Shown here: piece by piece, positions 9,729 through 50,524 of the stretch
How positions within the stretch are numbered: position 1 is the first letter of the stretch
Layout of the letters: each line of letters starts with the position of its first letter
Assembly: GCA_001779595.1 (NCBI GenBank)
Contig: MFKO01000002.1
Span: 22,279 to 86,278, forward strand
Direction: 5' to 3'
DNA from: Candidatus Kaiserbacteria bacterium RIFCSPHIGHO2_01_FULL_46_22
Lineage (GTDB): Bacteria > Patescibacteriota > Minisyncoccia > Phycocordibacterales > UBA918
Length of the DNA stretch: 64,000 nt
The notes under the pieces: model-generated
The model's input: the letters and a program-made list of their open reading frames with translations, nothing else
Told to the model about the DNA's origin: nothing
Database searches by the model: none
Made by a program: the position numbers and the translations under genes

Positions 9729-9763
9729 AAGTCATACACAAACAAAGGGAGGAGGTGTTTAAA

Positions 9764-9910
9764 ATGTCGCATCCCCGTAATAAGTCCGATGGCGAACCCA
9801 ATCGGGCGAAACGGCGAAAGAAGGAGTTGAAGGAAAAGCAGGGCGGAATCCTGCAGCCGCGTGGCGCACCCGTTGGCCCAGGCAAGAAAAGAAGGGTCAG
9901 GAAGCCTTGA
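9764..9910 (+). CDS. Orphan 48-aa Lys/Arg-rich small protein (MSHPRNKSDGEPNRAKRRKKELKEKQGGILQPRGAPVGPGKKRRVRKP)
   Basis: AAAGGGAGGAGG Shine-Dalgarno 7 nt upstream of the ATG; 17 of 48 residues are K/R; flanked by exact-stem terminators on both sides; not in the ORF track because it is under 60 aa. Confidence 0.35.
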   Translation: MSHPRNKSDGEPNRAKRRKKELKEKQGGILQPRGAPVGPGKKRRVRKP

Positions 9911-9916
9911 TCCACA

Positions 9917-9952
9917 GGCCCGATCGCGATAGCGATCGGGCCATATTTTTTT
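9917..9952. terminator. Rho-independent terminator (bidirectional position)
   Basis: ggcccgatcgc-gata-gcgatcgggcc perfect stem followed by TTTTTTT. Confidence 0.8.
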
Positions 9953-10100
9953 AATCTCTTTTTTCCTTGTTAAACATTTCTCCAATAATCCCAAACATCA
10001 CACCAAGGAAAATGAAGCTCACTACATTATCTGTGAGAATGCCCATTACAGCTCCCACAAATGTACCTATAGCTATTACTGATCCCCAAGGAAGATTCAT
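9951..10100 (-). CDS. Possible small single-TM protein
   Basis: MNLPWGSVIAIGTFVGAVMGILTDNVVSFIFLGVMFGIIGEMF; weak RBS. Confidence 0.25.
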   Translation of the reverse strand: MNLPWGSVIAIGTFVGAVMGILTDNVVSFIFLGVMFGIIGEMFNKEKRD

Positions 10101-14710: not shown

Positions 14711-14790
14711 CCTCGGTTTAATCGTGATAGGGTGTTTATAGAAGGACAGACTCGCTGTACTTCGCAAAAACCTGTACAAGGAGAATAGAA

Positions 14791-15144
14791 ATGTTACCTG
14801 ATTGGACAGGAAAGGCTGTGGCAGGTGCCGCAGTGGGCGCCGTAGCTGCTATGATCGTCGGCTTCGCGTGGGGTGGTTGGATGACCAGTGGGTCGGCTGC
14901 GACGATGGCGAAAGCCGAATCGCAGAAGGCAGTAGTTGCTGCCCTTACTCCGATCTGCGTCAAGCAGGCGGAAGTTGATCCGGAACGCACGGTGAAGCTC
15001 GCGGCGTTGGGCGCGTTATCTTCGTACCAGCGGAGCGACGAGCTCGTGAAGACCGGCTGGGCAACAATGCCTGGTCACGACAAGCCGGCCGACAGGGCCG
15101 TCATCTCAGCTTGTCTCAACGAACTGGCCAAGAGTCTGAAGTAG
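14791..15144 (+). CDS. Orphan 117-aa protein in GC-rich island; N-terminal Gly/Ala-rich TM helix
   Basis: AAGGAG, 7-nt spacer, ATG; GC-rich; GKAVAGAAVGAVAAMIVGFAWGGW helix; no family recognised. Confidence 0.4.
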   Translation: MLPDWTGKAVAGAAVGAVAAMIVGFAWGGWMTSGSAATMAKAESQKAVVAALTPICVKQAEVDPERTVKLAALGALSSYQRSDELVKTGWATMPGHDKPADRAVISACLNELAKSLK

Positions 15145-15163
15145 TTCAGACGAGAACACAATA

Positions 15164-15203
15164 GTGCGCCGTTCGGTTATACCGAACGGCGCATATTTTA
15201 TTT
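15164..15203. terminator. Rho-independent terminator (bidirectional position)
   Basis: gcgccgttcgg-ttata-ccgaacggcgc perfect stem followed by a T-run. Confidence 0.8.
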
Positions 15204-15935
15204 GTATGGGTCCTTTTGAGCGTAAATGGAGACGGTGCGACGCTTGCGGGCTTTGCCGTGAGCGCGATGCTTGTGTGAACGGTATATCTTTTTGACGATG
15301 AATTTTTCGGACAGAAATTCAAGCAACTCATTTTCGCCATAGGCGTGTTCGGGCACACCGATCACTGGGTGGATGTAGCTTCCAGGTTCATTGGCTGGAA
15401 ATTCTTTGAGTAATCGTATCGTGTGGAGGTCGTCGTCACGCAAGAAAGTTTTCATAAACAACCAACCACCTGGTCGTAAAACTCGATGTATTTCATTTCG
15501 TAGCACTTCGCGTTCGGACGCAACTAAAAAGTGCGATGTCATCATATCGAGAACAAGATCTTGCGAAGCGTCGGGAAGATCAATTGTTCCTGCAATACTG
15601 CGGGCCTCGTAAGTGATTGGCAGGCCTGAAGACAAGCGTTTAGCCTCAGCCACAGCCGCGGTTGAAAGGTCATAACCTACACCAGTGACGCCAAACTCAC
15701 GTGCCAAAAAAATGAGGTTACGGCCGTTGCCGCTGCCTAGGTCTAGAGCCTTGGCGTGCTTATTTAATGCCAGCTCATTTTTTTGGCGCGAGAGCCAACG
15801 TGTAAATTTGGCAAAGTCCTCGCTCTCGTCTTCTGACAACGCCAAATGCTCCCCGCCAGAGGCGTACTCGCTGTCCCAGAAAGTAACACCGTGTTGCTTT
15901 CGCTTCTGTTTTCGTATGAAAGGTCTCTTGGCCAT
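15198..15935 (-). CDS. Class I SAM-dependent methyltransferase
   Basis: ALDLGSGNGRNLIFLAREFGVTGVGYDLS motif I; basic C-terminal tail. Confidence 0.6.
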   Translation of the reverse strand: MAKRPFIRKQKRKQHGVTFWDSEYASGGEHLALSEDESEDFAKFTRWLSRQKNELALNKHAKALDLGSGNGRNLIFLAREFGVTGVGYDLSTAAVAEAKRLSSGLPITYEARSIAGTIDLPDASQDLVLDMMTSHFLVASEREVLRNEIHRVLRPGGWLFMKTFLRDDDLHTIRLLKEFPANEPGSYIHPVIGVPEHAYGENELLEFLSEKFIVKKIYRSHKHRAHGKARKRRTVSIYAQKDPYK

Positions 15936-26087: not shown

Positions 26088-26212
26088 GAAGGACTGAGTG
26101 AATTGGTATCAGGTTGTTAAAGTAGCATTGACTTTAGTCATTTTTTGATTTAGTGTTCGTTACAGACCATTCCATGAGGAGTGGCAAATGCACCTAGAAA
26201 AGGAGAATATCA

Positions 26213-26593
26213 ATGGGGATACTTATTAGGAGGTCAGATGGACTTCGGATTCGTGTGACCGGCACCGGCGTGGATGGTGACCCGATCGGTGAGGTTATCG
26301 ACGATCAGGACAGCATCGTCACGGTCCGTCGCCTCAACTTGGCCGAAAGGGACGCCTACTACCGCGCCCAGAAAAGCGGGAAGATAGAAGTTGCGGTTAT
26401 CAAACACCACAACGGCGTCATCAAGACTCAGCGCTACTGGAGCCCGAGCAGCGGGAAACGTTCCGTTGCTCCGCAGAGATCTTCTCTGCGGAGCAACAAA
26501 TCCTCGACCACTTACAGGGTCGTCGAGATCGAAAGCCAGTTTTCTGTGCGGATCGGCACCAAGCACTTGGACTTTCCGAAGGGTCTCTATTGA
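26213..26593 (+). CDS. Orphan 126-aa protein in GC-rich island
   Basis: AGGAG, 7-nt spacer, ATG; GC-rich; contains a 15-bp-arm inverted repeat; no family recognised. Confidence 0.4.
   Translation: MGILIRRSDGLRIRVTGTGVDGDPIGEVIDDQDSIVTVRRLNLAERDAYYRAQKSGKIEVAVIKHHNGVIKTQRYWSPSSGKRSVAPQRSSLRSNKSSTTYRVVEIESQFSVRIGTKHLDFPKGLY
26465..26497 (+). repeat. Perfect inverted repeat inside the orphan ORF (15-bp arms, 3-nt spacer)
   Basis: gttgctccgcagaga-tct-tctctgcggagcaac. Confidence 0.8.
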
Positions 26594-26653
26594 TCTGATT
26601 CCAAGCTTACTGAGGTAAGCGCAAAGCCATTCGGTTTTTGCTACAATTATTGT

Positions 26654-28644: not shown

Positions 28645-30672
28645 TTAGATACCAATCAGTACTGGAATCACCATCGGAGTCTTGTTGGTCTTTTGCATTA
28701 GGAAGCCAGAAACAGTGTTGGAAAGTTCATCCTTCACATAATCTAGATCAAGAGGATGCATTTTCTCAGTATGCTTCTCAACAGTTTTTTTGATGAGAAT
28801 GCGGGCTTCTGATAGTAGCTGTTGGTTCTCACGCAAGTAAACGAAGCCACGAGAAATAATGTCAGGCGACTTACGCAGCTTTCCGTTCTTGGTATTGACG
28901 GTCGCGATGATAACGAACATACCGTCTTCAGCGAGTGTCTGGCGGTCACGCAGCACCACTTCCTGCTTGGTGCCCACTGTGAAGCCATCTACCATCACAA
29001 GTTCGGTAGGGGCCTTTGCTTTTTGTACGGTCATCTCACCATTCTTGAAGTCGATTAGGAAGCCGTTGTCTGGTACCACAATGTTTTCGCGAGGGAAACC
29101 GTTTTCGATTGCCGTATACATATGGCTCTTCAAGTGGTAATGGTGGCCGTGTACTGGGATCAAGAATTTCGGACGAATCGCCTGACGTACCCAATTTAGT
29201 TCACCAGCATTACCGTGGCCAGAGGAGTGCACTGCCGCGCTGCGGTAGTTGATAACCTTCACATTCTTGCGGTAGATATTGTCCTTTAATTTCTGAACAG
29301 CAATCTCGTTACCGGGAATCACCGATGAAGACAACACAATAGTGTCGCGTTCAGTTAGTGTGATCTGCTTATGCTTATCGGTTGCGATTCGCATCAGAGC
29401 AGCAAATTCCTCACCCTGCGCACCAGTGGAAAGGATAACGATGCGATCTGATGGGTAGTCGCCCATATCACCAGCATTGATAAATATTTTATCGTCAACT
29501 TCCAATAGTTTTGCTGTCCGAGCGATGTCTATGTTGGTTTTGATACTGCGACCTTCCAGTACGACTTTTTTGCCGTATTTCTCGCAGGATTTTATGATCG
29601 AAGTTAGTCGCTCAAATTGTGAAGCAAACGTACCAATGATCATACGGCCGGTACTGTTTTTGATGATGGCATCAAGATTTGAAAGAACCAAACCTTCCGA
29701 TGCAGAAAATCCCTCACGGTCAGCATTGGTCGAGTCACAAATCAAAACTAGGTTGTTGTTTTTGCCCATCTTCTCCCAGCTCTCACGTTCATCCAAATCC
29801 ACTTCACCATCTTCATGAGTAAGGCGGATGTCACCAGTGATTACAATATCGCCCTGGTTGGTCTCCACAGATACTCCCATCGCGTCAGGAATTGAGTGAG
29901 TGACAGGGAAGGTTTTGATTCTCATCTTGCCAACAGTGAAAGAATCACCCTCTTTGACAACGTGCATATCAACAGGGTCTAGATGAGGAAATTCTTCTTG
30001 ACGCTTCTTGATCATTAGTGAGGTCAAGTACTGGGTGTAAATTGGCGGGTTACCAATACGTTCCATTACAAATGGAATACCACCGATGTGATCGAGGTGT
30101 CCGTGAGTGACTACTAGAGCTCGGATCTTATGCTTTCGTTCCTCGACATACTGAGTATTAGGCAAGATGTAGTTGATACCTGGAGCGTTAGATTCTTCGG
30201 ATACGAATTGAAAACCAATGTCGAAAATAACCATGTCGTCCTTTGTTTCAACCACTGTCATGTTACGACCGATTTCTTCAACGCCGCTCATCGGAATCAC
30301 ACGTACAGTCTCGTCATCAGTAATTTCTGGCAGGCGAGGAGATTTCTCGTCAGTGACAGAAATACGGTGTTGAAGAGCCGGCGCTTTGTTGGAGCGGCGT
30401 TTGTTCGCAAAGCGAGAAGGACGGCGAGAGCCACCGCGTCGCTCGCCGGCACTGTCATTGGTGCGGCCAGCAGGGCGGGGTGCGGCGCTTTTTGTTTCTG
30501 TGCTGACACCAGTAGCACTACCTGTGCCTGTACCAGCTACATTGTTGCGGGAGGGCGCACCACGATAGTTACTGCGTGAGCCAAAACGGGTTCGGCTTCC
30601 GCCGCTACCACCAAATGGACGTCGGCGACTACCGCCTGTGGCCTTTGGTCCATTATTTTGATTATTATCCAT
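28645..30672 (-). CDS. rnj: Ribonuclease J (beta-CASP metallo-beta-lactamase) with ~110-aa Arg/Gly/Ser-rich N-terminal extension
   Basis: VTHGHLDHIGGIP HxHxDH motif and beta-CASP region; N-terminus MDNNQNNGPKATGGSRRRPFGGSGGSRTRFGSRSNYRGAPSRN... Confidence 0.8.
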   Translation of the reverse strand: MDNNQNNGPKATGGSRRRPFGGSGGSRTRFGSRSNYRGAPSRNNVAGTGTGSATGVSTETKSAAPRPAGRTNDSAGERRGGSRRPSRFANKRRSNKAPALQHRISVTDEKSPRLPEITDDETVRVIPMSGVEEIGRNMTVVETKDDMVIFDIGFQFVSEESNAPGINYILPNTQYVEERKHKIRALVVTHGHLDHIGGIPFVMERIGNPPIYTQYLTSLMIKKRQEEFPHLDPVDMHVVKEGDSFTVGKMRIKTFPVTHSIPDAMGVSVETNQGDIVITGDIRLTHEDGEVDLDERESWEKMGKNNNLVLICDSTNADREGFSASEGLVLSNLDAIIKNSTGRMIIGTFASQFERLTSIIKSCEKYGKKVVLEGRSIKTNIDIARTAKLLEVDDKIFINAGDMGDYPSDRIVILSTGAQGEEFAALMRIATDKHKQITLTERDTIVLSSSVIPGNEIAVQKLKDNIYRKNVKVINYRSAAVHSSGHGNAGELNWVRQAIRPKFLIPVHGHHYHLKSHMYTAIENGFPRENIVVPDNGFLIDFKNGEMTVQKAKAPTELVMVDGFTVGTKQEVVLRDRQTLAEDGMFVIIATVNTKNGKLRKSPDIISRGFVYLRENQQLLSEARILIKKTVEKHTEKMHPLDLDYVKDELSNTVSGFLMQKTNKTPMVIPVLIGI

Positions 30673-39022: not shown

Positions 39023-39056
39023 AAACCGCCGGCAAGCTTACCGGCGGTTTATGTTT
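39023..39056 (+). terminator. Rho-independent terminator
   Basis: aaccgccgg-caagctta-ccggcggtt followed by TTATGTTT. Confidence 0.65.
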
Positions 39057-39057
39057 G

Positions 39058-39072
39058 GCGGAGGGTGAGGGA
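39058..39072 (-). repeat. 15-nt direct copy of the tRNA-Ser 3' end (gcggagggtgaggga)
   Basis: Identical to 39216..39230. Confidence 0.6.
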
Positions 39073-39146
39073 ACTTTTCTCTTACAGAGCAGTACACCTT
39101 TTGGCTAAAATTTTCTTAAAATTAATTTTAGCTCAAAAGGTTTTCA

Positions 39147-39170
39147 AATCCCTCCCGTCTCACTCAAAAT
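39147..39170 (+). repeat. Degenerate inverted fragment resembling the tRNA-Ser T-arm/acceptor (gttttcaaatccctcccgtctcac)
   Basis: 12/12 match to TTCAAATCCCTC of the tRNA in the opposite orientation. Confidence 0.45.
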
Positions 39171-39216
39171 ATAATCACACAAAACTCCAGATGTTCGTTT
39201 TGTGTTCATTATTTTG

Positions 39217-39303
39217 CGGAGGGTGAGGGATTTGAACCCTCGAAGGAGTTTCCCCCTTACCGCCTTTCCAAGGCGGCGCACTAGACCACTATGCGAACCC
39301 TCC
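39217..39303 (-). tRNA. tRNA-Ser (anticodon GGA), type II with long variable arm
   Basis: Reverse complement folds as a cloverleaf: acceptor GGAGGGT/ACCCTCC, anticodon stem CCGCC/GGCGG with loop TTGGAAA, long variable arm, T-arm GGGTTCAAATCCC; CCA not encoded. Confidence 0.8.
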
Positions 39304-39394
39304 TAATGTTGCGGTCGTTATGATAGCGCAAAGTAGTTCCTTTACCAACCTTGAGAAGGGTAGATTCGTTTGTACTCAATGTATAATTTACCTA

Positions 39395-39961
39395 ATGAAA
39401 CGTGATGATTGGATGCTCCTTACTCTGACCTTCTTAACTGGTGCAGCGATTGGAATGTATATGTATGTTGCGGTCTGGAAGCCGGTTTATTTTCCTGAAG
39501 ATTTAGGAAATGAAGAAGCAGAGGCTTCTGATTGGAGTATCGTCGGTGAAAGACGGCAAGGTGGAGCCACCGAAGCTTCTTTCCGACTTCTTTCGGATGG
39601 TAGTTATAGTTATATAGCCATTGACGATCTCTCTGGTGAGCCAGAAGCGCGCAAAGAAGGATCAATCAAGAAAACGCTGGTTAAGGAATTGATGGTGTCG
39701 GAAGATGAGATTGCTTCTTACGAAGAAGAAACAGAGTGTCTGGCATCAGATAAAGTTGAATATGAGTATCGTTTTACAATCGACAACTACACTTATTTGC
39801 TCGATACTTGCAACACTGAACTTGGACACGACACCGAGTTGTCTCTCTTATTGAAAAAAGCGTGGCATCAAATGGAAGGTAGTGTTGACGGAACTGCTAC
39901 GCCGTCAGAATGGCTAACGAACTGGCTTAACGAAAGGATTGGAGCAAATAAAAATAATTGA
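39395..39961 (+). CDS. Hypothetical membrane-anchored protein
   Basis: N-terminal TM (MLLTLTFLTGAAIGMYMYVAVW); ATG at 39395 preferred. Confidence 0.35.
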   Translation: MKRDDWMLLTLTFLTGAAIGMYMYVAVWKPVYFPEDLGNEEAEASDWSIVGERRQGGATEASFRLLSDGSYSYIAIDDLSGEPEARKEGSIKKTLVKELMVSEDEIASYEEETECLASDKVEYEYRFTIDNYTYLLDTCNTELGHDTELSLLLKKAWHQMEGSVDGTATPSEWLTNWLNERIGANKNN

Positions 39962-39971
39962 AAGTAAGTAC

Positions 39972-40004
39972 AAAGCCGGCCACGTCTAACGTGGCCGGCT
40001 TTTG
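39972..40004 (+). terminator. Rho-independent terminator
   Basis: agccggccacg-tcta-acgtggccggct followed by TTTT. Confidence 0.8.
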
Positions 40005-40104
40005 AAATACAAAATATATCTGTGCGTAACAATAACCGAGGCGATCAGGATAATGCAGATCAATCGCCTTTCCGTAACGCAGAGTTAATCAATATTTCAT
40101 CTCT

Positions 40105-40758
40105 ATGAACTTAAGATCAGTATTAATCCCAGTGGCAGCGTTTGCTGTTACTGTGACTGGCGCTAGCGCCTTTAATAGCGAGCTCTTGCAAAAAGCAGGA
40201 CTCACAGAGGATCAAATCAGTGCTTTCGAGGAAGCCAAAGAACTTCGTGAAGCAGGTGATTTAGATGCGGCCCGAGATGTGCTCGAAGAAGCTGGAGTTG
40301 ATGAGGGTGTAATGGAGCGACTTCGCGACACGATGCACGGCCACCATAAAGCACTCAGGGCTGCGATCGAGGACAATGATTACGAAGCTTTCCGTGAAGC
40401 AATCGAAGGCTCACCTCTTGCTGACATCATTAATACTGAGGAAGAATTCGAACGTTTCGTTGAGGCTCACAATCTAATTAAGAATGGTGACAAAGAGTCT
40501 GCCAAAGAAATTTTTGATGATCTAGGAATCGAAGGTCCAGGTAAGCACATCAAAATGTTCAACGGTGACAAGGAACCTCCATTCTTTGAACAGTTAACAG
40601 ATGAACAAAAAGAAGAGCTTAAAGCAGCTTTTGAGTCACGTGATCACGACAAAGTGAAGGAACTACTCGCTTCGTATGGCATAGAATTGCCGGAGAAATC
40701 AGAAGGGAAAGGCTTTGGTTTTGGTCGGGGAATGCATAAAGAAATGAATAACGATTAG
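40105..40758 (+). CDS. Secreted acidic alpha-helical protein (hypothetical)
   Basis: Signal peptide MNLRSVLIPVAAFAVTVTGASA; E/D-rich. Confidence 0.4.
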   Translation: MNLRSVLIPVAAFAVTVTGASAFNSELLQKAGLTEDQISAFEEAKELREAGDLDAARDVLEEAGVDEGVMERLRDTMHGHHKALRAAIEDNDYEAFREAIEGSPLADIINTEEEFERFVEAHNLIKNGDKESAKEIFDDLGIEGPGKHIKMFNGDKEPPFFEQLTDEQKEELKAAFESRDHDKVKELLASYGIELPEKSEGKGFGFGRGMHKEMNND

Positions 40759-40928
40759 GCAACCGATCGACTTAATAAAAAGGCCGGCAACCTGCGGGGT
40801 GGAGACTTCTGCGACTCCATCTCGCGGGCTGCCGGCTTTTTTGTAATTTAGTGGACAATACGATGATTTTAATGTAGGATTTCGTGCACTTACAGCTGTG
40901 CCCGAGGGCACTTTTTCTTTTTTTGATT

Positions 40929-42710
40929 ATGGAAATACGCAATATCGCAATCATCGCTCACGTGGACCACGGTAAGACAACCCTTACTGATGCTTTAATG
41001 GAGCAGACCGGCGCCCGTGCCGAAGGACAGTCAATGGACTCAAACGCTCTTGAAAAGGAACGCGGCATTACTATTTATGCCAAAAACACCTCCATTGAGT
41101 ACAAGGGTACCAAGATCAACATCGTTGACACTCCAGGCCACGCCGACTTCGGCAGTGAAGTGGAGCGTGTTTTGCGTTCGATCGACTCTGTTTTGCTCGT
41201 AGTGGACGCTCAGGAAGGTCCGATGCCACAGACACGTTTCGTACTTAAAAAGTCGCTTGAGCTTGGTCTTAAGCCGATTGTGGTCATTAATAAGATCGAC
41301 AAGCCTGCCGCTAACCCACATCACGCTGAGGAGCAGGTTCTCGAACTCTTCCTAGAACTTGGCGCAAATGATGAACAGTCCAATTTCACTACCGTATTTG
41401 CTATCGGACGTGAGGGTATCGCTAAGCGGTCTCTTGAAGACGATTCAAAGGACCTTTCACCACTCCTAGACGTCATCTTGGAGCAGGTACCAGCAGCTAA
41501 GGCCTACGTAGAGGGCGAGCCGCTAGCAGCTCAGGTCTTCAATCTTGGTTACGACAACTTCCTCGGCCGTTTGGCAGTAGCGCGTGTTTACAGCGGAAAG
41601 TTGAGCAAGGGACAGACTTTGTTTGTTGCTGCGGAAGGAAAGGAAAAATGGAGTAGCAAGGTAGTTAAAATTTCTACCTTCAAAGGCACTAGTCAGGTGG
41701 AATCCGATACCGTTTACGCTGGTGATATCGCATTGATCGCTGGTTTTTCTAAAATCGACATCGGTGAGACATTGGTGGACAACGAAGCGACTGAACCGCT
41801 AACTGCCATTCACGTTGATGAGCCGACTATCGGCCTCAGCTTTATGCCAAATGCTTCGCCTTTCGCTGGGCGAGAAGGTAAGTTTGTTACTGGTCGCCAG
41901 ATCAGAGAGCGTCTTGAAAAGGAACTCGAAATTAACGTGGGTCTTAAAGTAGACTTTTCAAAGGGAGACTTTTTTGAAGTATACGGACGTGGAGAAATGC
42001 ACATCTCTATCTTGTTGGAAAACATGCGTCGAGAAGGTTACGAAATGGCCGTGTCTCAGCCGCAAGTAATCATTAAGGAGGAAAACGGACAAAAAACTGA
42101 ACCGTTTGAAGAAGTAGTTGCTGATATTCCGTCTGAATTCCAGGGACCGGTAATCGAAAAGTTATCGAACCGTGGTTTCGTGATGCAGAATATGATCACT
42201 CACGAAAATCAGGTTCGTTTGGTCTTCGTTGGTCCTACACGAGGTCTTCTTGGTTACAAAGGTCAGTTCATTATCGACACCAGAGGTGAAGGAATTTTGG
42301 CTTCACAATTCGTTGGCTTCCGTCCATACGCTGGTGAGATCAAGAAGCGTCAGGCTGGCAGTATGGTTTCAATGACGGCAGGTAAAGCACTTGGATTTTC
42401 ACTTTGGAATTTGCAAGATCGCGGACAGCTCTACATCAACCCAGCCACAGAAGTATATGAGGGTATGGTGATCGGAAATACTTCTAAGGGTGAAGAAATG
42501 ATGGTAAACCCGACTAAGGGTAAGCAGCTCACCAACATGCGCTCTTCGGGAGCTGATGAGGCAATCAACCTTACTCCACCACGAATCCTTAGTATTGAAA
42601 TCGGTTTGGAAACAATGGCTGACGATGAGTATTTGGAAGTAACACCACAAAGTGTACGTTTGCGTAAAGCTCTTTTGAAAGAGAGTGAGCGTAGGAAGGG
42701 TGGTAAATAA
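40929..42710 (+). CDS. typA: Translational GTPase TypA/BipA
   Basis: [23 protein letters not shown]1 motif, [13 protein letters not shown]. Confidence 0.9.
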
Positions 42711-42722
42711 TATTGGGTATTA

Positions 42723-42757
42723 AAACAGCCGGCCCCGAAGGGGCCGGCTGTTTTAAT
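42723..42757 (+). terminator. Rho-independent terminator
   Basis: acagccggcccc-gaa-ggggccggctgt followed by TTTT. Confidence 0.85.
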
Positions 42758-42859
42758 ACCCATACACAACGGCCACATTGACACTTTTTAATACTGTAAT
42801 ACTCTGGTTGGTACCAGGCAATAACGCACTGGTAACGCCAACCAAAAAGGAGTTTTTCG

Positions 42860-43003
42860 ATGACCTGGAAAACGCATTTTTCGGCCAACTTCAGCCCCCA
42901 TATCGGCGACACCACTTCTTTGGCCCGCGCGCAGAATTCGCACAGCGTCGCTATCGGCACCGGCGTGTCGGACGGTTCGGTCAAGGACATCTCCAAGAAC
43001 TGA
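42860..43003 (+). CDS. Orphan 47-aa ORF in GC-rich island (MTWKTHFSANFSPHIGDTTSLARAQNSHSVAIGTGVSDGSVKDISKN)
   Basis: AAGGAG, 7-nt spacer, ATG; GC-rich; followed by a second SD-like site (AAAGGGGA, 7 nt, ATG at 43040) and a 21-codon ORF (43040..43105). Confidence 0.3.
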   Translation: MTWKTHFSANFSPHIGDTTSLARAQNSHSVAIGTGVSDGSVKDISKN

Positions 43004-43196
43004 TTCAAGGCCAGGGTCTCCCAGAAAGGGGAAACGCACATGTCTATCCGCAAGGGTATGGTGAGACGATATTCGTCTCAAGGTGATCAGGTTCTTTCTG
43101 TCTGAAATTTTTCAGACTCGAGCACAAAAGGGCGATCGTGAGTTATCTCCGAACGCCCTTTATTATTTTTTTATACCCTCACTTCGGCGAGGTTTT

Positions 43197-43898
43197 TTAA
43201 ACCATCCCCAACGCTTTCAAAAAATCTTTAAGCTCTTTTCCAACAATCTTTCTATATTGATTCGGTTTCAGTTTGCCTAGTTCAATATTCACAATGCGAA
43301 CACGTTTCAAATTATCTACTTGCCAGCCGAGAGCGGCGCACATTCGTCTGATTTGGTGTTTTTTGCCCTCAGTCAGTACCAGACGAAAGACATTTCGTCC
43401 TTTTGGTACTGCTAGCGCTGGCTTAGTCTTGTAACCTTCAATGTTCACACCAAGCGCCAGTTGTTTCAATAGACCAATTGTCACCGGTTTATCTACGGTC
43501 ACTTCGTACTCTTTCTCGTTGTCATTTTCAGAGTCTAGAAGTGGTCCGGTAATGAGACCGTCGTCAGTAATGATAAGAAGACCTTCTGAAGCTTTATCTA
43601 GTCGACCGATCGGGAAAAGACCAGACAGTCCGTAGTCTTTCTTGAGGCGAGTGATTACATCAACTTCGCCCTCGCTCGGTGAGTGGGTAATGATACTAAC
43701 GCCTTTGTAGTAGGCGAGATAGGTGCGCGGCTTGGTAGCGCCGGGAGCCAGGCGAACTATGTCGTCATCTCCAATTTGTTGCCCTAGGGTGGCCTTTTTA
43801 CCGTTTACCAGCACCTTGCCTTCGGCAATCAGTCTATCTGCTTCGCGCCTAGAAGCGAGTTTTCTATCCGCCAAATATTTATTCAAACGAACAGCCAT
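43197..43898 (-). CDS. rRNA pseudouridine synthase (RsuA/RluB family) with S4 domain
   Basis: N-terminal S4 (...LNKYLADRKLASRREADRLIAEGKVLVNGK...), catalytic GRLDKASEGLLIITDDG. Confidence 0.8.
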   Translation of the reverse strand: MAVRLNKYLADRKLASRREADRLIAEGKVLVNGKKATLGQQIGDDDIVRLAPGATKPRTYLAYYKGVSIITHSPSEGEVDVITRLKKDYGLSGLFPIGRLDKASEGLLIITDDGLITGPLLDSENDNEKEYEVTVDKPVTIGLLKQLALGVNIEGYKTKPALAVPKGRNVFRLVLTEGKKHQIRRMCAALGWQVDNLKRVRIVNIELGKLKPNQYRKIVGKELKDFLKALGMV

Positions 43899-43934
43899 CG
43901 CAGTATTCTAGCACTAATAGATTGAAATATTTAC

Positions 43935-44531
43935 TTGAGAAAAGCGTATAATTTCAAGATGGCCGCAGAGACAGCATCGCCCTCGGACAACGAGGTAGTC
44001 AAACTAGCGCTCGAAGAGCGGTCGTCCTTTGGCCTTATCGTAGAGCGGTATCAGGAAAAGTTGTCCCGTTATGTTACCCGTCTCGGAATCAAGGATTCGG
44101 ACGACCGCGATGATGTTCTTCAGGAAGTGTTTATAAAAGTTTATCGCAACTTAAATGATTACGATGAGCATTACTCATTTTCTGCTTGGATTTACCGCAT
44201 TGCGCACAACGAGGCAATTTCTTGGTATCGTAAGAAGAAGGTAAGGCCAGAGGGCAACTTGGTGGTGGACAGTGAAGAGGTTTTGGCTTTTTTAAATAAT
44301 AATGAAGAAGACGCCGCTGTGCGTCTTGATCAAAAAATCAACGCTGCATATTTAGAGGACGCGCTTGCAAAGCTTGATCCTAAATACCAAGCCGTATTAA
44401 TTCTCCGATATTTTGAACATCTTGAGTATGAAGAAATATCTGATGTGCTTGAGTTGCCGACCGGTACAGTTGGCACTTTAATTCATCGTGCCAAGAAGCA
44501 GCTTCGTGAAGCCTTAGAAAAATATGAGTGA
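43935..44531 (+). CDS. ECF-type RNA polymerase sigma factor (sigma-70 family)
   Basis: Region 2 (...VFIKVYRNLNDYDEHYSFSAWIYRIAHNEAISWYRKK...) and region 4 (...EEISDVLELPTGTVGTLIHRAKKQLRE...). Confidence 0.75.
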   Translation: MRKAYNFKMAAETASPSDNEVVKLALEERSSFGLIVERYQEKLSRYVTRLGIKDSDDRDDVLQEVFIKVYRNLNDYDEHYSFSAWIYRIAHNEAISWYRKKKVRPEGNLVVDSEEVLAFLNNNEEDAAVRLDQKINAAYLEDALAKLDPKYQAVLILRYFEHLEYEEISDVLELPTGTVGTLIHRAKKQLREALEKYE

Positions 44532-45477
44532 TACACAAAAACAACCAAATAAAGACTTAAAAGAAAGTGTTCTTTCACGCTTGGAGAAAGAGGGAATTGA
44601 GCCCCGCTCACGCCTTTATTGGCTTTCACACGAATACGCCCTTTGGGGCGCTTGGGGTCTTGCGGTATTGTGCGGCGCCTTGGCGCTTTCGGTAGCTTCT
44701 TTTGCCTCTTTGCACATAGGCTACGCACTATATGAGGCTTCACATAACGATTTTCTAACCTTCGTCTTTGACGCCCTGCCTTATCTCTGGCTGGTAGCTT
44801 TCTTCTTACTAATAGCTGTTTCCTATTTCAATCTCAGGCACACTAAAAGAGGCTATCGCTACCCGATCATTCTAGTGGTGGGCAGTAGTATTGGTTTTAG
44901 TGTTCTTGGCGGTGGTTTCCTTCACTGGCTGGGTGCTGGTTGGTATTTTGATCAAATGTTGGGTGAAATAGTGCCTGCGTATCAATCAAGGGCTAAGTTT
45001 GAAGAGGAAATCTGGCAAAAACCGATGGCGGGACGTTTAGTTGGTAAAGTGGTTCAGCAGCCCGAAGAAGTTGATTATGCTGCTTTTGTAGATGCAGAAG
45101 GAGAGTATTGGCGTCTTAATACTGAAGAGTTGCGTGAACATGACGTTGATTTACTTCAAAGCGGTCGAAAGGTCCGCATCTTGGCCGCTACCTCCAGCGA
45201 GTTCGCTGAAGGTTCGCTTTATGTCTGTGCCGTTTTTCCTTGGATACTCGACCACGCTCCCGGTCTCAAGGAATGGCGCGCTGATCGGGCAGGGTTTATC
45301 GAAGACGTAAAGGCGTCTAAGGAAATGATCCACATCATACGTACTCCATCAGGTGAGGGCAGACCAAACGATATTCCTCCACCTGAAGTGATGGAAAAAG
45401 TTGCTTCAGAAACCTCTTCACGTTGCTACAACTTGTCCGTTTTCAAACGCGCCAGGCCGGGCATTGTGGCGGAATAG
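44524..45477 (+). CDS. Putative membrane-spanning anti-sigma factor (by position)
   Basis: Start overlaps the sigma stop by 8 nt; 4-5 TM helices; no recognisable domain. Confidence 0.35.
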   Translation: MSDTQKQPNKDLKESVLSRLEKEGIEPRSRLYWLSHEYALWGAWGLAVLCGALALSVASFASLHIGYALYEASHNDFLTFVFDALPYLWLVAFFLLIAVSYFNLRHTKRGYRYPIILVVGSSIGFSVLGGGFLHWLGAGWYFDQMLGEIVPAYQSRAKFEEEIWQKPMAGRLVGKVVQQPEEVDYAAFVDAEGEYWRLNTEELREHDVDLLQSGRKVRILAATSSEFAEGSLYVCAVFPWILDHAPGLKEWRADRAGFIEDVKASKEMIHIIRTPSGEGRPNDIPPPEVMEKVASETSSRCYNLSVFKRARPGIVAE

Positions 45478-45694
45478 TGCCAAAAAGTACGGCAAAGAAA
45501 ACATAGTCACGACTTAATTATGGATTACTGTCAAGCTTACTAAGTTCTGGCGTACTGCTAGAATGCAGACATTATGAACGCAGAACTCATACCTCTTCGG
45601 GGGTCTGTTTTACGAAAGCATCTCGGCATTTTTTAATTGCCTAGATGCTTTTTGCGTTCAAATATCCAAATTTAAAAATTTTTATACCAATTAT

Positions 45695-48600
45695 ATGAAT
45701 TCCCACACCGCGCACTTCTTGAACCGAGTTCTTTCATTTGTGACCATAATCGCTCTCGTTTTGGTCATGGTGCCGGTTTGGCCACAGATAGCACATGCAG
45801 ATAATCTTTTTTCCACGAGCTTCGAAGGAACTCCGCCACTTGATGAATGGACAAGTGACGATCCTCATTGGGGAGTAAACGCGAGTGATTCAAGAACTGG
45901 CTCAAAGCAGGCGCAAGCAGTGGGAAGTAATTCTGGCGCCGGGACTCTTCTCAAAGAAGTCAGTACGGAGGGCTACGAAAACATCTCTCTAAGTTTTTGG
46001 TACAAACAGCTAGGCATGGACGTTGGCGATAGTATTACAGTGGAATGGTTTGATGGATCAAGTTGGAACCCTGTAACCGCAATCAATGGGCTTGAACTTG
46101 AGGCGGACGACGATGCTGTGTGGGTTGAGTGGTCAGGACTTCTGGGTTCCGAAGCTGACGACAACACCGCCTTTGCCGTAAGGTTTGTGTCGAATATGAA
46201 TTCCGCTGGGAACGATAAGTTTTTCTTAGAGGACGTTAATCTAGAGGGTGAAGAGGAAGAAGTTGTGGGGCCTGTTCCAGATTGTAGTCTCACAGACAGC
46301 GTGTCGATGACTACTTTTGACACTTTTGCTACAGGTACTGTAAATGCGCAAAACTCATGGAGCTCAACTGGCTCTTATGACCAGGAGGTTGTTCCAAATA
46401 CTTATGGCTTTGAAGAGTTCGGTTGTAAATCACTTCGCATCTCAAATGCTGTAACAAGCGGTGCTTTCGGGAATCAGACGTTTGCCGCTCCAACTGCGGG
46501 TACAGCAGGCGAATCAAGTGTTGCGGCCAATAATCATTTTGAGGCAGAGTTTGATATTGCTTCAACAATGCCTGGTTTGCAGTCAGGTCTGACACTTTCA
46601 GTGTCTCCTGATGACGGAAATGGTTCACGTATGAGCTATTTGAGCTTCACTGACACCGCAGATGGTATCGATGTGGTCTTTTATGACGTAACAAACACCG
46701 GCCCTCTTCCGAGCGTAACTTCATGGAATGATACAGAAGTTGCAACACTTGATCGCGATGAGTCCCATACAATCAAATTTGTAATGGACTTCGTAGATGG
46801 TCCAGGTAACGATGTTGTGAAGATTTATATAGATGACGTACTTGCACATACAGGCACCAGCTGGGAGGACTATTATCGCTATGACGCAGAACAAAACGGC
46901 AACGGAAACGCATTGTTCGGAGTAGATACTCTTATCTTCCGTGCTGGAGGGACAGCTGTTCCTGCAAACGATAGCAACGGTTTCCTGTTCGACAATATGT
47001 CTATGTCAGTTTCAGACATTAGTTCTGGCAGCAGTACTTCTGAAACCATAGTGGTTTCCAGCAACACATCTGCAGGTGAGAATCTACCAGGATGGATGTT
47101 CAACCGTGATCCAGGCACAGATACTCCATTTGTGTTCAACACTGATCAATCATCTATCGGTGCTGGTAGTCTCTACGTGTTGCCGATTGGCTCATCTAGC
47201 CCAAGCGATAAATTTATCGCGGAGAACTTCATCAATGCACCAATTGCCGATGTCGATTCTATTTCTTACGACTTTATGATCGGCAGTGGCGGCGAGAACA
47301 CTGATGAGGAACAGTTCTATATGAATGTATACGCCAACTTCGGCGTATCTGACGACAATAAGTTTTACGACTGTCGATACAACATCGTGCCAACAACTGG
47401 TTCTACTGGCGGATTTACGACTGTTACATTTGACCCAAATCAGAGCTATCCAGTTACCACCCGAACCGGAGGCTCTGCGTCACCATTTACCTGTCCTTCT
47501 GTACCAGCTCAGATGGATAACTTAAGTCCAGGCTCCAATATCCGTGTCTTCTCCCTAAATCTTGGTGATACCACCGTGAGCGATGAAGGTATAGACGGTT
47601 ACTTTGATCGAGTGGTTACAGTTATTGACGATGGAGACAATACTCATACCACCACTTATGATTTCGATCCTGAATCTGAAGCTCCAACTGCCGCTGTAAC
47701 AATGTGTAAGTACAATCCATCTGAACAGACAATGGATGGTTGGACTTTGATGTTGGAGGGTGAACATATAGAAGACGTTGTTGTGCCAGCTGGCGCTATT
47801 GGAGGTATAGACACCACCGCTTCTCTTGAGGCTGGTAAGTCCTACTTCGCGGTAGTAAATGGCGTATGGCTAAACGATCGTACTCCTGACAATCACGTGG
47901 ATGCAGAGTACTCAACTGAAGACAGTTGGCTTACTCAAATGGACGGATTCACTGGTTACGGTGAAAACATTCTTGATCTACAAGTAGGAGAAGAGTTTGT
48001 AGAATGGGGTCCATACAACAGCACTCATACTTACTCAGCATCATTCACTCCAAGTGTTGATGGCTCTGTGAACTTCCGTATCTTTGACGGTACAGGCGAC
48101 ACACCGAATGCTTCTTGGTACGGAGATAACTCTGGTTCACTCAGCGTATCTATTTATGAAGGTTTTGCCGGAGTAACTGACGATGGTTGTGTTACTTTCG
48201 ATGCTGTACCTTACGGTTCCTATGAAGTTGACGAAGTGATGCAGGAAGGTTGGGTCAACACATTTGGTCTTGTAGAGGTTGAAGTAGATGAACCGACTGA
48301 AGAGTTCAATGTAGTAAACGATGAGATTGGCGAACCAGAAATGTGTTACGTGACAGTTGTTTCAGATGAGAGCAACTATGTAGAAGAAACTGAAGACGAT
48401 GCGGAATTGACTTGGGCGCATCCAGCCTGGACTGCTGTGATCGACTTGGCTGAATGGATCTGGGGTACTGAAAATGTAGAAGATCCAACTGTTACTGAAG
48501 TACAGACTTTTGTTAAAACATTTGAATGGAGCGGCGGTGTTGCATCTTCATCACTTGTAATCGCTACTGATAACTTCTATGAAGTTTACCTAAACGGCAA

Positions 48601-50524
48601 CTTCGTAGCTTCGAGTACAGAAGCCAGCCTCTTCACTGATGCAAACAAGGACACGATTGATGTTTCTGGCTTTATTGAGATGGGAGAAAACACTTTGGAG
48701 ATCAAGGTTACCAACCTCGGTGTTCCAGGCAGCTCACCTACCAGCAATCCAGCTGGTTTGAAATACAACCTCACTGTTGTATCAGACGAAGAGGGTGAAG
48801 ATTGTATGTATGCTCCTGACGAACCTAGTCTTGAGATCACTAAGCCAGAAATAGATGACATGGTACTGGCTGGTATTTACACCTTTGAAGCTGAATACGT
48901 TGATGCAGATGAAAACCCTGATCCTGTACAGTGGGCGATCCGTGCTGGTACTTGTAACGCAGGTACAAACACTGTTGCAGGAAACGTTGATGGATTCTTT
49001 AGCTCATCAACACCACACACATGGAATGGAGCAAGCTTCTCTAGCACCATTGATATGAGTGACTGGGATGATGGCGAATACTGTTTCGTCGTTAATCCAA
49101 CTGAAGATGGCGGCACAAACTTCCGTGAGACTCGTCTATTTACTCTTGAAAACGCTGCACCTACACAATGTCTAGTAGTGAGCGACACAAGTACTGTAGT
49201 GGTAGAGAACAACAATTACGCTGTTGCTACTTGGGATGAGCATCATAACTGGACTCATGACATTCTTGGAGCTACTTGGATCTGGGATAACCTCTACGTT
49301 GTAGATCCTGAGGCTACAACCACGTTAACCTTCAAAGAATCATTTACTGCAACTGATATTGAAGAAGCGTCGTTTGAAATCGCAACCGACAATGCATACA
49401 AGGTATTCATTAACGGTGTATTGCGATATGAGCAGTCAAACTCCAACAACTTCCAAACTCCTGATGAGCATGAGGACGTCCTCGACTTCCTAACTGAAGG
49501 AGAAAACGAACTACTTGTAGAAGTGACCAACTTCGCAGTGGAAGACAGTATTCCTAAGACCAACCCAGCTGGAGCGTTGTTCAAACTAGATATGGAAGTT
49601 GGTGGTGTTTGTGAAATCACTACTGACCTAGAGGATGAATCAGAACCTCAGCCTGAAATCGGAGAGAATGAAGTCTTTGGCTTCGTCTGGGTGGACGATA
49701 ATGAAGATACCTCTAAGAATAACGACGAAGACTATCGCTCAGGTATCGGTATTTCGATTAATAATGGTTCAACCACAGTTTCTACCAGCACTGATGCAGG
49801 TGGTCGTTACTTCTTTAACATCGATGATGGTAGCTGGACTATCAGTGCCACAACTGGAGGAGAGTGGAGTCTAACTTACCCGTCTGATAACGGTGGTGAA
49901 CACGACGTCAGTGTAAGCACTAGCTCTGGTCCTTATGACTTCGGTATTGTCGAAAACGGTTCTACCGATGGAGGTGGTGACGGTGATGGGGATGGCAATG
50001 GCGATGGGGACGGTGATGGCGACGAAGGTGGCGGAACTGGTGGTGGCGACACAACTATCGATTCACCTAGTGGCGATGCCGGCGGTAACCCACAAATAGC
50101 TGGCGTTACGACAAGTGGCGGCCTCTTCTCACGTGGAGATTCTGGTCCGGACGAAAAGGTATTGGGTGAAAGTACTTCGACCGAAGATGGAACAGATGAC
50201 TCTATTGAAGAATCGACATCCACAGCAAAAGCTTTGACTGCAATGGTAGATTGGATTGATGAGTGCTGGTACTGGTGGCTCTTGGTCTTCGCTTGGATCG
50301 TATCAAGCGGCGTTGTTTACTACTGGAAAGGTTGGAGCAATGAACCAATTTCTCTAATGAGCGTTGAACTATTGTTCAGTATTCTTGGATTGCTTGGACT
50401 GATGTCCTACCTAGTGTTTGGCTTACATTGTGCATTGTGGCCTTCTCTAATCACTATGTTGGGCTCAGCGATACTGTACTATGTCAATAACCGTGAGATC
50501 CCTTCGTCCAAGACCGTGCTATGA
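45695..50524 (+). CDS. Giant (1609 aa) cell-surface protein with N-terminal signal/TM, internal duplicated beta-rich domains, DG/NG repeat and C-terminal TM anchor
   Basis: Signal-like N-terminus; two ~120-aa paralogous segments; (DG)n/(NG)n low-complexity; C-terminal hydrophobic helices. Confidence 0.6.
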   Translation: MNSHTAHFLNRVLSFVTIIALVLVMVPVWPQIAHADNLFSTSFEGTPPLDEWTSDDPHWGVNASDSRTGSKQAQAVGSNSGAGTLLKEVSTEGYENISLSFWYKQLGMDVGDSITVEWFDGSSWNPVTAINGLELEADDDAVWVEWSGLLGSEADDNTAFAVRFVSNMNSAGNDKFFLEDVNLEGEEEEVVGPVPDCSLTDSVSMTTFDTFATGTVNAQNSWSSTGSYDQEVVPNTYGFEEFGCKSLRISNAVTSGAFGNQTFAAPTAGTAGESSVAANNHFEAEFDIASTMPGLQSGLTLSVSPDDGNGSRMSYLSFTDTADGIDVVFYDVTNTGPLPSVTSWNDTEVATLDRDESHTIKFVMDFVDGPGNDVVKIYIDDVLAHTGTSWEDYYRYDAEQNGNGNALFGVDTLIFRAGGTAVPANDSNGFLFDNMSMSVSDISSGSSTSETIVVSSNTSAGENLPGWMFNRDPGTDTPFVFNTDQSSIGAGSLYVLPIGSSSPSDKFIAENFINAPIADVDSISYDFMIGSGGENTDEEQFYMNVYANFGVSDDNKFYDCRYNIVPTTGSTGGFTTVTFDPNQSYPVTTRTGGSASPFTCPSVPAQMDNLSPGSNIRVFSLNLGDTTVSDEGIDGYFDRVVTVIDDGDNTHTTTYDFDPESEAPTAAVTMCKYNPSEQTMDGWTLMLEGEHIEDVVVPAGAIGGIDTTASLEAGKSYFAVVNGVWLNDRTPDNHVDAEYSTEDSWLTQMDGFTGYGENILDLQVGEEFVEWGPYNSTHTYSASFTPSVDGSVNFRIFDGTGDTPNASWYGDNSGSLSVSIYEGFAGVTDDGCVTFDAVPYGSYEVDEVMQEGWVNTFGLVEVEVDEPTEEFNVVNDEIGEPEMCYVTVVSDESNYVEETEDDAELTWAHPAWTAVIDLAEWIWGTENVEDPTVTEVQTFVKTFEWSGGVASSSLVIATDNFYEVYLNGNFVASSTEASLFTDANKDTIDVSGFIEMGENTLEIKVTNLGVPGSSPTSNPAGLKYNLTVVSDEEGEDCMYAPDEPSLEITKPEIDDMVLAGIYTFEAEYVDADENPDPVQWAIRAGTCNAGTNTVAGNVDGFFSSSTPHTWNGASFSSTIDMSDWDDGEYCFVVNPTEDGGTNFRETRLFTLENAAPTQCLVVSDTSTVVVENNNYAVATWDEHHNWTHDILGATWIWDNLYVVDPEATTTLTFKESFTATDIEEASFEIATDNAYKVFINGVLRYEQSNSNNFQTPDEHEDVLDFLTEGENELLVEVTNFAVEDSIPKTNPAGALFKLDMEVGGVCEITTDLEDESEPQPEIGENEVFGFVWVDDNEDTSKNNDEDYRSGIGISINNGSTTVSTSTDAGGRYFFNIDDGSWTISATTGGEWSLTYPSDNGGEHDVSVSTSSGPYDFGIVENGSTDGGGDGDGDGNGDGDGDGDEGGGTGGGDTTIDSPSGDAGGNPQIAGVTTSGGLFSRGDSGPDEKVLGESTSTEDGTDDSIEESTSTAKALTAMVDWIDECWYWWLLVFAWIVSSGVVYYWKGWSNEPISLMSVELLFSILGLLGLMSYLVFGLHCALWPSLITMLGSAILYYVNNREIPSSKTVL
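48419..48790 (+). repeat. Intragenic domain repeat, copy 1 (…HPAWTAVIDLAEWIWG…TNPAGLKYNLTV…)
   Basis: Shares WxxxxxxxxxWIW, …FExxxxxxxSSLxIATDNxYxVxxNGxxV…, …KDTxDxSxFxxxGENxLxxxVTNxxV…TNPAG… with copy 2; approximate coordinates. Confidence 0.55.
49240..49615 (+). repeat. Intragenic domain repeat, copy 2 (…HHNWTHDILGATWIWD…TNPAGALFKLDM…)
   Basis: See copy 1; approximate coordinates. Confidence 0.55.

Follow-up and report, generated by a model that had tools for sequence, protein, structure and literature searches.

A lineage-specific, GC3-rich segment with a short open reading frame at the typA junction of a Kaiserbacteria genome

What fills the space between the convergent typA and pseudouridine synthase genes of Candidatus Kaiserbacteria bacterium RIFCSPHIGHO2_01_FULL_46_22, and should it be read as a small gene, as a regulatory leader or as the residue of something larger? 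In the stretch of 64,000 nucleotides that was analyzed (the window), typA, which encodes GTP_EFTU and BipA_C domains, occupies positions 40884 to 42710 of the plus strand, and the synthase gene, with S4 and PseudoU_synth_2 domains, occupies 43197 to 43898 of the minus strand, leaving an interval of 486 bp between them. A search with typA led to genomes of the Patescibacteria (CPR), the best match, at 96% amino acid identity, being that of the nearest relative, Candidatus Kaiserbacteria RIFOXYB1_FULL_46_14 (L001). A sequence-only reading had described the interval as a GC-rich insert with two tiny open reading frames (ORFs), each preceded by a Shine-Dalgarno (SD) motif, and had offered a small-protein gene, a leader peptide or a remnant of a larger foreign gene as possible explanations. 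From typA toward the synthase gene, the elements follow one another in the order typA hairpin, TTGACA box, 5' stem-loop, SD motif, 47-codon ORF, 21-codon ORF, 3' hairpins and terminator. The explanation that we prefer, and to which we would give about an even chance of being correct, is that of a recently gained, compositionally foreign and self-contained mini-gene on the plus strand, its ORF probably truncated and decaying and its expression and function putative.

The designation of this DNA as an insert was borne out by comparison with L001. Two blastn blocks, in which window positions 39055 to 42758 align with L001 positions 2144 to 5850 and window positions 43193 to 45792 with L001 positions 5851 to 8425, are contiguous in the relative at 5850/5851, and window positions 42759 to 43192 therefore lack a counterpart in L001; blastn and global alignment define a lineage-specific segment of ~434 bp (42759 to 43192, plus strand) that is absent from this relative. 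In L001 and in its metagenomic twin, L081, typA and the synthase gene lie 45 bp apart with one shared terminator hairpin in between, and this hairpin is homologous to the one at 42714 to 42762 of the window, from which it is separated by three compensated stem changes (GCCGGCCCC/GGGGCCGGC versus GCCGCCGGC/GCCGGCGGC). The hairpin of the window is a putative bidirectional typA terminator with a perfect 23-bp stem and A/T-rich feet (-45.2 kcal/mol, z -9.6), and the homology marks it as the apparent ancestral element of the junction. The presence or absence of the segment is thus a polymorphism between lineages, and the segment would have been gained in this one at the foot of the typA terminator.

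The sequence-only reading had recommended that the same interval be compared across relatives, and we surveyed the junction in the 29 in which both genes still converge. The gap spans 45 to 108 bp in six loci (five further lineages besides L001/L081) and 385 to 2350 bp in the remaining ~20 relatives, where unrelated ORFs lie inside it; the segment is not conserved, and the other cargo is unrelated to it. Because gap size and cargo differ so widely across the 29 relatives, we take the junction to be a recurrent site of gain and loss, one that behaves as a hotspot in Kaiserbacteria-like CPR bacteria, with cargo in the window that is unique to its species. Six same-species loci from independent ENA, JGI and Logan assemblies carry the segment; five are 100% identical to the window and the sixth (L166) has one unlocated mismatch over 6474 bases. 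Since five of the six independently assembled loci are identical, the segment is not an assembly artefact; the same loci carry essentially no variation for an analysis of selection or polymorphism. Contigs of the organism occur in groundwater samples (SRR3989344, SRR2090153, JGI 3300025323 and ERZ28563803). The segment has no second copy in the 64 kb of the window, where the palindrome of the typA terminator and a weak 75-nucleotide match at 15134 to 15207 are the only repeats, and neither DNA comparison nor the translated search that had been proposed earlier matched it to any of 170 related loci (1.26 Mb).

The manner of insertion may have left a trace. A repeat search found an imperfect 11-bp direct repeat, TTTT(A/T)ATACCC, with its left copy (TTTTAATACCC) at 42751 to 42761 on the plus strand and its right copy (TTTTTATACCC) at 43168 to 43178, flanking positions 42762 to 43167; the sequence is of low complexity and the repeat could be due to chance. 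It hints, with little weight, at a possible target duplication or at microhomology. The only inverted match to the ends of the segment is the arm of the typA hairpin itself.

Gain of the segment, rather than its repeated loss elsewhere, would be preferred by parsimony only, and the opposite history has to be considered: a gene may once have stood at the junction in the ancestor, been deleted in L001 and in the lineages with short gaps and been kept here as a decayed piece. Many relatives do carry 0.4 to 2.3 kb of cargo at this site, and the ORF looks truncated, as such a remnant might. Nevertheless, the cargo of the ~20 relatives resembles the segment at neither the DNA nor the protein level, the minimal state with a single hairpin is found not only in the closest relative but also in five or more other lineages, and a third-position GC content (GC3) of 0.79, far from the composition of the host, speaks against long residence. 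We consider an ancestral remnant improbable.

The GC enrichment reported for the insert is real but modest: the core (42850 to 43063) has a GC content of 0.56 against 0.42 in its flanks, which places it in the top 2% of 214-nucleotide windows, the mean of the window being 0.455. The first of the two small ORFs was confirmed as described, with AAGGAG located 7 nucleotides upstream of the ATG at 42860 and 47 codons that extend to a TGA (42860 to 43003, plus strand; MTWKTHFSANFSPHIGDTTSLARAQNSHSVAIGTGVSDGSVKDISKN, with THFSANFSPHIGDTTSLAR and AQNSHSVAIGTGVSDGSVK in the product). Its GC content at the three codon positions is 0.42/0.52/0.79, and its GC3 of 79% is the highest among 67 ORFs of the window, for which the median is 44%. 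The core is strongly 3-periodic, with a GC content of 0.75 to 0.90 at coordinates congruent to 1 mod 3 from ~42850 to ~43063, and the periodicity over 42860 to 43063 is significant by permutation (p <5e-5) and lies in the top 0.7% of 204-nucleotide windows. The composition statistics that the earlier reading had called for thus uphold the compositional distinctness of the insert.

The GC-rich phase corresponds to the third codon position both in the 47-codon frame and in one minus-strand frame, and the assignment of a coding strand had to be made on other grounds. Position-1 purines amount to 0.66 in the plus frame, as in typA and rluB, against 0.53 in the minus frame, and the RNY pattern is correct in the plus frame only, in which GC1 is atypically lower than GC2. 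Two other GC3-rich ORFs of the window served to train a position-specific composition model, under which the plus frame as a whole scored +11.5 nats and the best minus frame +2.4, a preference of ~9 nats, while the four other frames were negative; for the 47-codon ORF alone, the score was +8.8 nats and each other frame reached +2.0 or less. The GC-rich block also begins exactly at the SD-led ATG. Purines, log-likelihood and the start of the block at the ATG favor the plus strand as the coding strand of the core, and the 47-codon ORF, as the best scoring of the six frames, is its best-supported coding frame. By these statistics, the core at 42850 to 43063 probably is, or recently was, protein coding, and we infer from its composition that it is of foreign origin.

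The same evidence bears on the possibility that coding lies on the minus strand, either because a 150-residue ORF there (42589 to 43041) is real or because the core represents the 5' portion of a foreign gene on that strand. This frame is open for 154 codons, its third position is likewise GC rich, GC1 exceeds GC2, secondary-structure prediction gives its translation an amphipathic-helical look, and gene finders called the ORF in five of the six assemblies. It nevertheless has no SD motif, crosses the typA terminator hairpin together with 122 nucleotides of typA antisense, has T at position 1 at a frequency of 0.28 to 0.30, as against 0.10 to 0.14 in real genes, and falls 9 nats short of the plus frame. 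Its only homolog among 5.8 billion proteins is itself (P0001), and an exhaustive HMMER search against 1.84 billion representatives returned only itself and P0002, a spurious ORF that represents a translated tandem repeat and that we rejected as a homolog; an AlphaFold2 model from the single sequence (pLDDT 41.5) was uninformative about its fold. We judge the ORF to be spurious, and minus-strand coding in either form is very doubtful. ORFs of about 100 residues had been reported on both strands and are indeed present (102 residues on the plus strand; 97 and 154 on the minus strand), but they are the usual by-product of GC-rich DNA, with no homologs and poor frame statistics.

If the plus strand encodes a protein, the question becomes one of where the coding sequence ends. 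The second small ORF of the earlier description is also present, with AAAGGGGA located 7 nucleotides before an ATG at 43040 and 21 codons (43040 to 43105, plus strand) that encode MSIRKGMVRRYSSQGDQVLSV. Both small ORFs belong to a single reading frame, with the TGA at 43001 to 43003 and 12 codons between them, a relationship that was missed earlier. Beyond this TGA, the next 20 codons (43004 to 43063, plus strand), in the same phase as the ORF, remain coding-like: 16 of the 20 third positions are G or C (permutation p 0.018, before allowing for the matching phase), and the highest score, +3.9 nats, is again that of the same plus frame. The read-through frame ends, in contrast, in 14 codons that are AT rich and not coding-like (43064 to 43105, -6.5 nats). 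The first 8 codons of the 21-codon ORF are therefore the continuation of the 47-codon frame, with the rest lying in AT-rich hairpins (it overlaps those at 43062 to 43080 and at 43100 to 43117); at -4.5 nats, it does not hold up as a separate gene and is the tail of the same frame.

No uninterrupted ORF crosses the coding-like region, which consists of the 47 codons, the TGA and then the 20 coding-like codons. Because the coding signal persists in frame for 20 codons past the stop, the ORF looks truncated; most likely, it once had at least 68 codons and was cut to 47 by a nonsense change, in keeping with the earlier suggestion that a remnant of a larger foreign gene might be involved. The TGA at 43001 would then allow, at best, the production of a disordered N-terminal peptide of 47 residues. 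Other readings of the TGA were set aside. An alternative genetic code in which TGA is a sense codon (codes 4 and 25) was rejected because TGA serves here as a normal stop, ending 9 of 42 long ORFs, and because typA and other conserved genes are full length under table 11; selenocysteine or another form of recoding was dismissed on account of the frequency of TGA as a stop and the lack of a convincing stem-loop 3' of it.

The main rival of truncation is that the 47-codon ORF is an intact, native and functional small-protein gene with its own promoter and that the periodicity beyond the stop is a residue or a coincidence. A good deal of the local architecture is as one would expect of such a gene, with a consensus SD motif (AAGGAG, 42847 to 42852, plus strand) at the optimal spacing, a 5' stem-loop, downstream terminators and the top score of all six frames. 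AAGGAG-N7-ATG occurs seven times on the two strands of the 64-kb window and is informative here, since four of the seven open ORFs of at least 80 residues; it also starts ORFs at 14791 and 26213. A similar SD-led ORF of 48 codons with a terminator, at 9764 to 9910, indicates that tiny genes recur in this genome, and the segment is the same in the six same-species loci apart from the mismatch in L166. A promoter-like box, TTGACA-N16-TACTCT, can be read directly from the sequence at 42778 to 42805 on the plus strand, and boxes of the form TTGAC(A/T)-N17-TAnnnT also precede small GC3-rich ORFs at 9179 and 26137; a consensus promoter scan did not call the box, and TTGACA is not enriched in the 64-kb window. 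As a promoter of plus-strand transcription, the box is a weak candidate.

Against an intact gene stand the 20 coding-like codons that follow the TGA in the same frame (p ~0.02), a peptide that is a featureless predicted coil with no homolog, and the absence of the ORF from the NCBI annotation of this genome. The 47-residue product is polar (rich in S, T, G, N and H) with no hydrophobic stretch, and AlphaFold2 rendered it from the single sequence as coil (pLDDT 63), a result that is uninformative about fold. Gene calling picked up the ORF in a single assembly (L161), and the database protein that represents the plus frame (P0003) originates from ENA-sourced calls only. We regard an intact gene as unlikely, though worthy of serious attention. 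A type I toxin-antitoxin system was also considered and rejected, the peptide being polar, devoid of a hydrophobic stretch and predicted to be coil.

Truncated or not, the ORF is embedded in structured flanks. A hairpin of 38 nucleotides (42806 to 42843, plus strand; -21.4 kcal/mol, z -5.6), unique in the window, lies directly before the SD motif and is a putative 5' untranslated region stem-loop. A perfect 8-bp hairpin (43062 to 43080, plus strand; -10.4 kcal/mol, z -4.3), likewise unique in the window, borders the GC-rich core on its 3' side, and beyond it is a 3' module (43100 to 43175, plus strand) of two folds, in which GTCTGAA-N4-TTCAGAC is followed by a 12-nucleotide spacer, a terminator hairpin and a T-run. 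The small hairpin at 43100 to 43117 folds at -8.2 kcal/mol. The larger one, at 43127 to 43161 (AAGGGCG...CGCCCUU; -20.4 kcal/mol, z -5.8), is the hairpin with a T-run of the earlier description and is present as stated; with its G+C-rich stem-loop followed by TTTATTATTTTTTT, it has the makeup of an intrinsic terminator, its putative function. A last, weak hairpin, CCUCAC-UUCG-GCGAGG plus T6 (43176 to 43196, plus strand; -5.5 kcal/mol, z -1.6), is marginal and abuts the stop codon of the synthase gene. The hairpins at 43062 to 43080, 43100 to 43117 and 43127 to 43161 are independent stems in minimum free energy (MFE) and centroid folds, and a non-exhaustive look revealed no evident alternative pairing among the 3' hairpins. 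As a plus-strand unit, the segment would comprise, in order, the promoter-like box, the stem-loop, the SD motif, the ORF and three hairpins that include the intrinsic terminator.

A further possibility is that a noncoding transcript of ~365 nucleotides, on either strand, acts as a small RNA (sRNA), its small ORFs being incidental. Over its full length, the interval is more stably folded than shuffled sequence on both strands (z -4.8), it lies between a promoter-like box and terminators, and it has no protein homologs. The core (42846 to 43059, 214 nucleotides), on the other hand, folds worse than shuffled sequence (z +1.62), with 194 of 200 shuffles at least as stable, and the fold signal of the whole interval stems only from the flanking hairpins. 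Strong codon-like periodicity is unexpected of an RNA gene, and the segment is found in no relatives. With Rfam 15 at the gathering threshold, the whole window yielded only a tRNA-Ser, with nothing in 42650 to 43250; at E of 10 or less, this interval gave sub-threshold hits on the typA terminator (at most 30 bits) and none in the core. ARAGORN found no tmRNA or tRNA in the interval. An sRNA is, in our estimation, a remote prospect.

A leader peptide or attenuator that controls a downstream gene was likewise considered, and small ORFs with SD motifs ahead of hairpins and a terminator do bear a superficial likeness to an attenuator, as in the Thr operon leader (RF00506), where a tiny SD-led ORF precedes hairpins and a T-run. 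The proposal fails on the orientation of the genes: the next gene (43197 to 43898) is on the opposite strand and convergent, typA on the upstream side has a terminator of its own, the unit is closed before the convergent gene by up to three plus-strand elements of hairpin plus T-run, of which the last is weak, and a leader-peptide role is excluded because there is nothing downstream to regulate. Unlike the known leaders, the insert has no codirectional downstream gene and no Rfam match over its ORFs; the sub-threshold match to Thr_leader (29.9 bits against a gathering score of 55) falls on the typA terminator, and the segment is absent from the sister species with the same flanking genes. We attach next to no probability to this explanation.

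Searches for the origin of the recently gained mini-gene that we prefer were uniformly negative. Protein searches covered up to 5.8 billion sequences, and the plus-strand read-through frame, searched against proteins with a word-indexed tool only, retrieved a self-hit (P0003) alone. No frame had a match in Pfam, PHROGs, NCBIfam or PADLOC, and nothing meaningful was found in plasmid and phage DNA (blastn) or in viral contigs. With no homolog in any frame, neither a donor nor a longer ancestral ORF appears to be traceable. A literature search returned general studies of orphan genes, none of them concerned with this locus or with comparable cassettes in CPR bacteria. In the prokaryotic survey of Vakirlis and Kupczok (Genome Res 2024; PMC11293555), species-specific orphan genes (SSOGs) match their host closely in GC and GC3, and de novo candidates are lower in GC. 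Like SSOGs, the ORF of the insert is short, predicted to be disordered, lacking at the orthologous site of the sister species and without a homolog outside its species, the only hits being to itself (P0003 for the plus frame and P0001 for the minus frame). Unlike SSOGs, it has a GC3 of 0.79 against a host median of 0.44, and because this is so far above the host, acquisition from outside is favored over native de novo birth.

Two other types of element invite comparison. Small horizontally acquired islets at intergenic hotspots are the classic "strain-specific loops" of bacterial genome comparisons, and the insert resembles them in its presence or absence at a fixed junction, in the lineage-specific variation of cargo there and in its atypical composition. 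It differs in being only ~434 bp long with one mini-ORF and in having no integrase, tRNA target or recognizable mobility gene; moreover, atypical islets are usually AT rich, whereas the present insert is GC rich. MITE-like and REP-like elements, for example Correia or ERIC, are intergenic and land beside terminators, and the insert is similarly a few hundred bases long, hairpin rich and located at a terminator, possibly with an 11-bp flanking direct repeat. Unlike these elements, it lacks terminal inverted repeats of its own and has no other copy in the 64 kb or the 170 loci, its core is coding-like and unstructured, and only the 75-nucleotide 3' module has a relative, and a weak one.

That relative lies within the same window, among further small ORFs with a high GC3. 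After the 47-codon ORF, the three highest GC3 values belong to ORFs at 9254 to 9655 (0.765, measured on the ORF with a TTG start at 9209 in the same frame), 26213 to 26593 (0.69) and 14791 to 15144 (0.67), all others being at 0.55 or lower, and these three lie in the other GC-rich patches to which the earlier reading had alluded. An SD-led, basic and GC-rich ORF of 48 codons with its own terminator is located at 9764 to 9910. The patch at 14711 to 15197 (ins2) fills a 487-bp gap between convergent genes, a site that measures only 30 to 120 bp in two relatives, L169 and L170. The patch at 26088 to 26653 (ins3) is missing in L167, and at its site L169 has an ORF with 35% identity; this homolog implies that the ins3 ORF, at least, is a real, fast-evolving gene. 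NCBI annotates the small GC3-rich ORFs of both ins2 and ins3 as genes, and AAGGAG-N7-ATG starts the ORFs of ins2, ins3 and the present insert. A match of ins2 in L160 (E 0.039) was dismissed, as it falls across frames.

The 3' module at 43100 to 43175 resembles the 3' end of ins2 (15134 to 15207), with 69% identity over 75 nucleotides (pairwise E 7.7e-4). TCTGAA-N2-8-TTCAGA, expected 0.04 times in the window, was found twice, and the small hairpin encloses the stop codon of the ORF in ins2 and in the present insert alike. When the window and 83 related loci were scanned with a covariance model of the module, no third copy emerged, and the link between the two inserts, drawn from two sequences, is suggestive. 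The two also occupy gaps of nearly identical size (486 and 487 bp), both between convergent genes. These likenesses raise the possibility, which we put forward very tentatively and think rather unlikely, that the insert is one of a class of self-contained, GC3-rich mini-gene cassettes in the intergenic junctions of this genome. The class would take in the ORFs at 9254 to 9655, 9764 to 9910, 14791 to 15144, 26213 to 26593 and 42860 to 43003, with strong SD motifs and terminators of their own; three of these sites allowed a comparison with relatives, and in every case at least one relative has no such cassette at the orthologous position.

The insert is, then, a product of ordinary genome flux and neither a regulatory leader nor a structured RNA. 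Its importance is chiefly one of annotation, as automatic callers place a spurious 150-residue ORF on the minus strand in most assemblies. Taken alone, this orphan and probably decaying mini-gene illustrates, on a small scale, gene flux at a variable junction. It also adds one instance to a wider pattern, in which this reduced CPR genome carries several tiny ORFs with a GC3 of 0.67 to 0.79 against a genomic norm of 0.44, at least some of them recent, site-specific gains. If the cassette class is real, it would point to a common donor or to a shared, so far undescribed means by which tiny genes reach a streamlined CPR genome, with a GC-richer host or a mobile element as a possible source. Cassettes that shared a donor could thus provide a handle on the unknown host or the mobile elements of Kaiserbacteria.

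GC content at codon position 3 (GC3) sets a class of small ORFs apart from the other ORFs of the window. Across the whole window, four ORFs have GC3 values of 0.67 to 0.79, namely, the 47-codon ORF at 42860 in the insert between typA and the convergent pseudouridine-synthase gene (42759-43192), a TTG-start ORF at 9209, and the ORFs at 26213 and 14791, whereas the remaining 63 have values of at most 0.55, with a median of 0.44. All four are small and encoded on the plus strand, and no family match was found for any of them.

The ORF at 9209 shares its frame with a 133-aa ORF (9254-9655; GAGGAG-N7-ATG start) in the first GC-rich patch (9179-9960), where a TTGACA box is located at 9179. The 133-aa ORF and a second SD-led ORF encoding a very basic product of 48 aa (9764-9910; MSHPRNKSDGEPNRAKRRKKELKEKQGGILQPRGAPVGPGKKRRVRKP) are each provided with their own terminator hairpin, and the patch as a whole is without family matches. 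Long overlapping ORFs on both strands of the patch, such as that at 9251-9994 on the minus strand, look like GC-driven artefacts. The second GC-rich insert (14711-15197) fills the 487 bp that separate a convergent DNA_binding_1 gene from a methyltransferase gene and carries a 117-aa ORF (14791-15144; NCBI OGG41763.1, hypothetical) with a hydrophobic N terminus; at the corresponding site, the related loci L169 and L170 have just 30 to 120 bp and one hairpin. The 3' end of this insert (15134-15207) is similar to the 3' end of the insert at 42759-43192.

The third GC-rich insert (26088-26653) contains a 126-aa ORF (26213-26593; OGG41775.1). The insert is absent from L167, which has a 35-bp spacer at that site, and the equivalent site of L169 (17372-17713) contains a 113-aa ORF that is 35% identical to it across 68 aa. 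Because this similar ORF lies at the same site, we conclude that the ORF at 26213-26593 is a real small gene that is fast-evolving and patchily distributed.

Unlike that of the inserts, the GC richness of an N-terminal extension of about 110 residues in the RNase J gene (28645-30672, minus strand; extension at 30317-30656) is amino acid driven: the extension, which precedes the metallo-beta-lactamase domain, is rich in Gly, Ser, and Arg, and GC is enriched at the first two codon positions rather than at the third. Elsewhere, a tRNA-Ser(GGA) gene (39216-39303, minus strand) was the sole Rfam/ARAGORN match in the 64 kb, and no Pfam match was recorded for a 1,609-aa ORF (45695-50524) lying downstream of an ECF sigma factor gene (43935-44531) and a 317-aa ORF.

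Between the typA terminator hairpin (42714-42762) and its counterpart in the sister species L001 (5810-5850), there are three base-pair changes, all fully compensated, which makes this a clean, if small, case of selection acting on the stem of an intrinsic terminator. Downstream, among loci L001 to L160, Paceibacteria-like genomes show a hypervariable typA/pseudouridine-synthase junction. The two genes are separated by as little as 45 bp or as much as 2.35 kb, and the cargo between them can be anything from one small membrane-like ORF (about 172 to 176 aa; those in L082, L085, L089, and L091 resemble one another) to a multigene insert. Most of the more distant relatives do not have the synthase gene next to typA at all.
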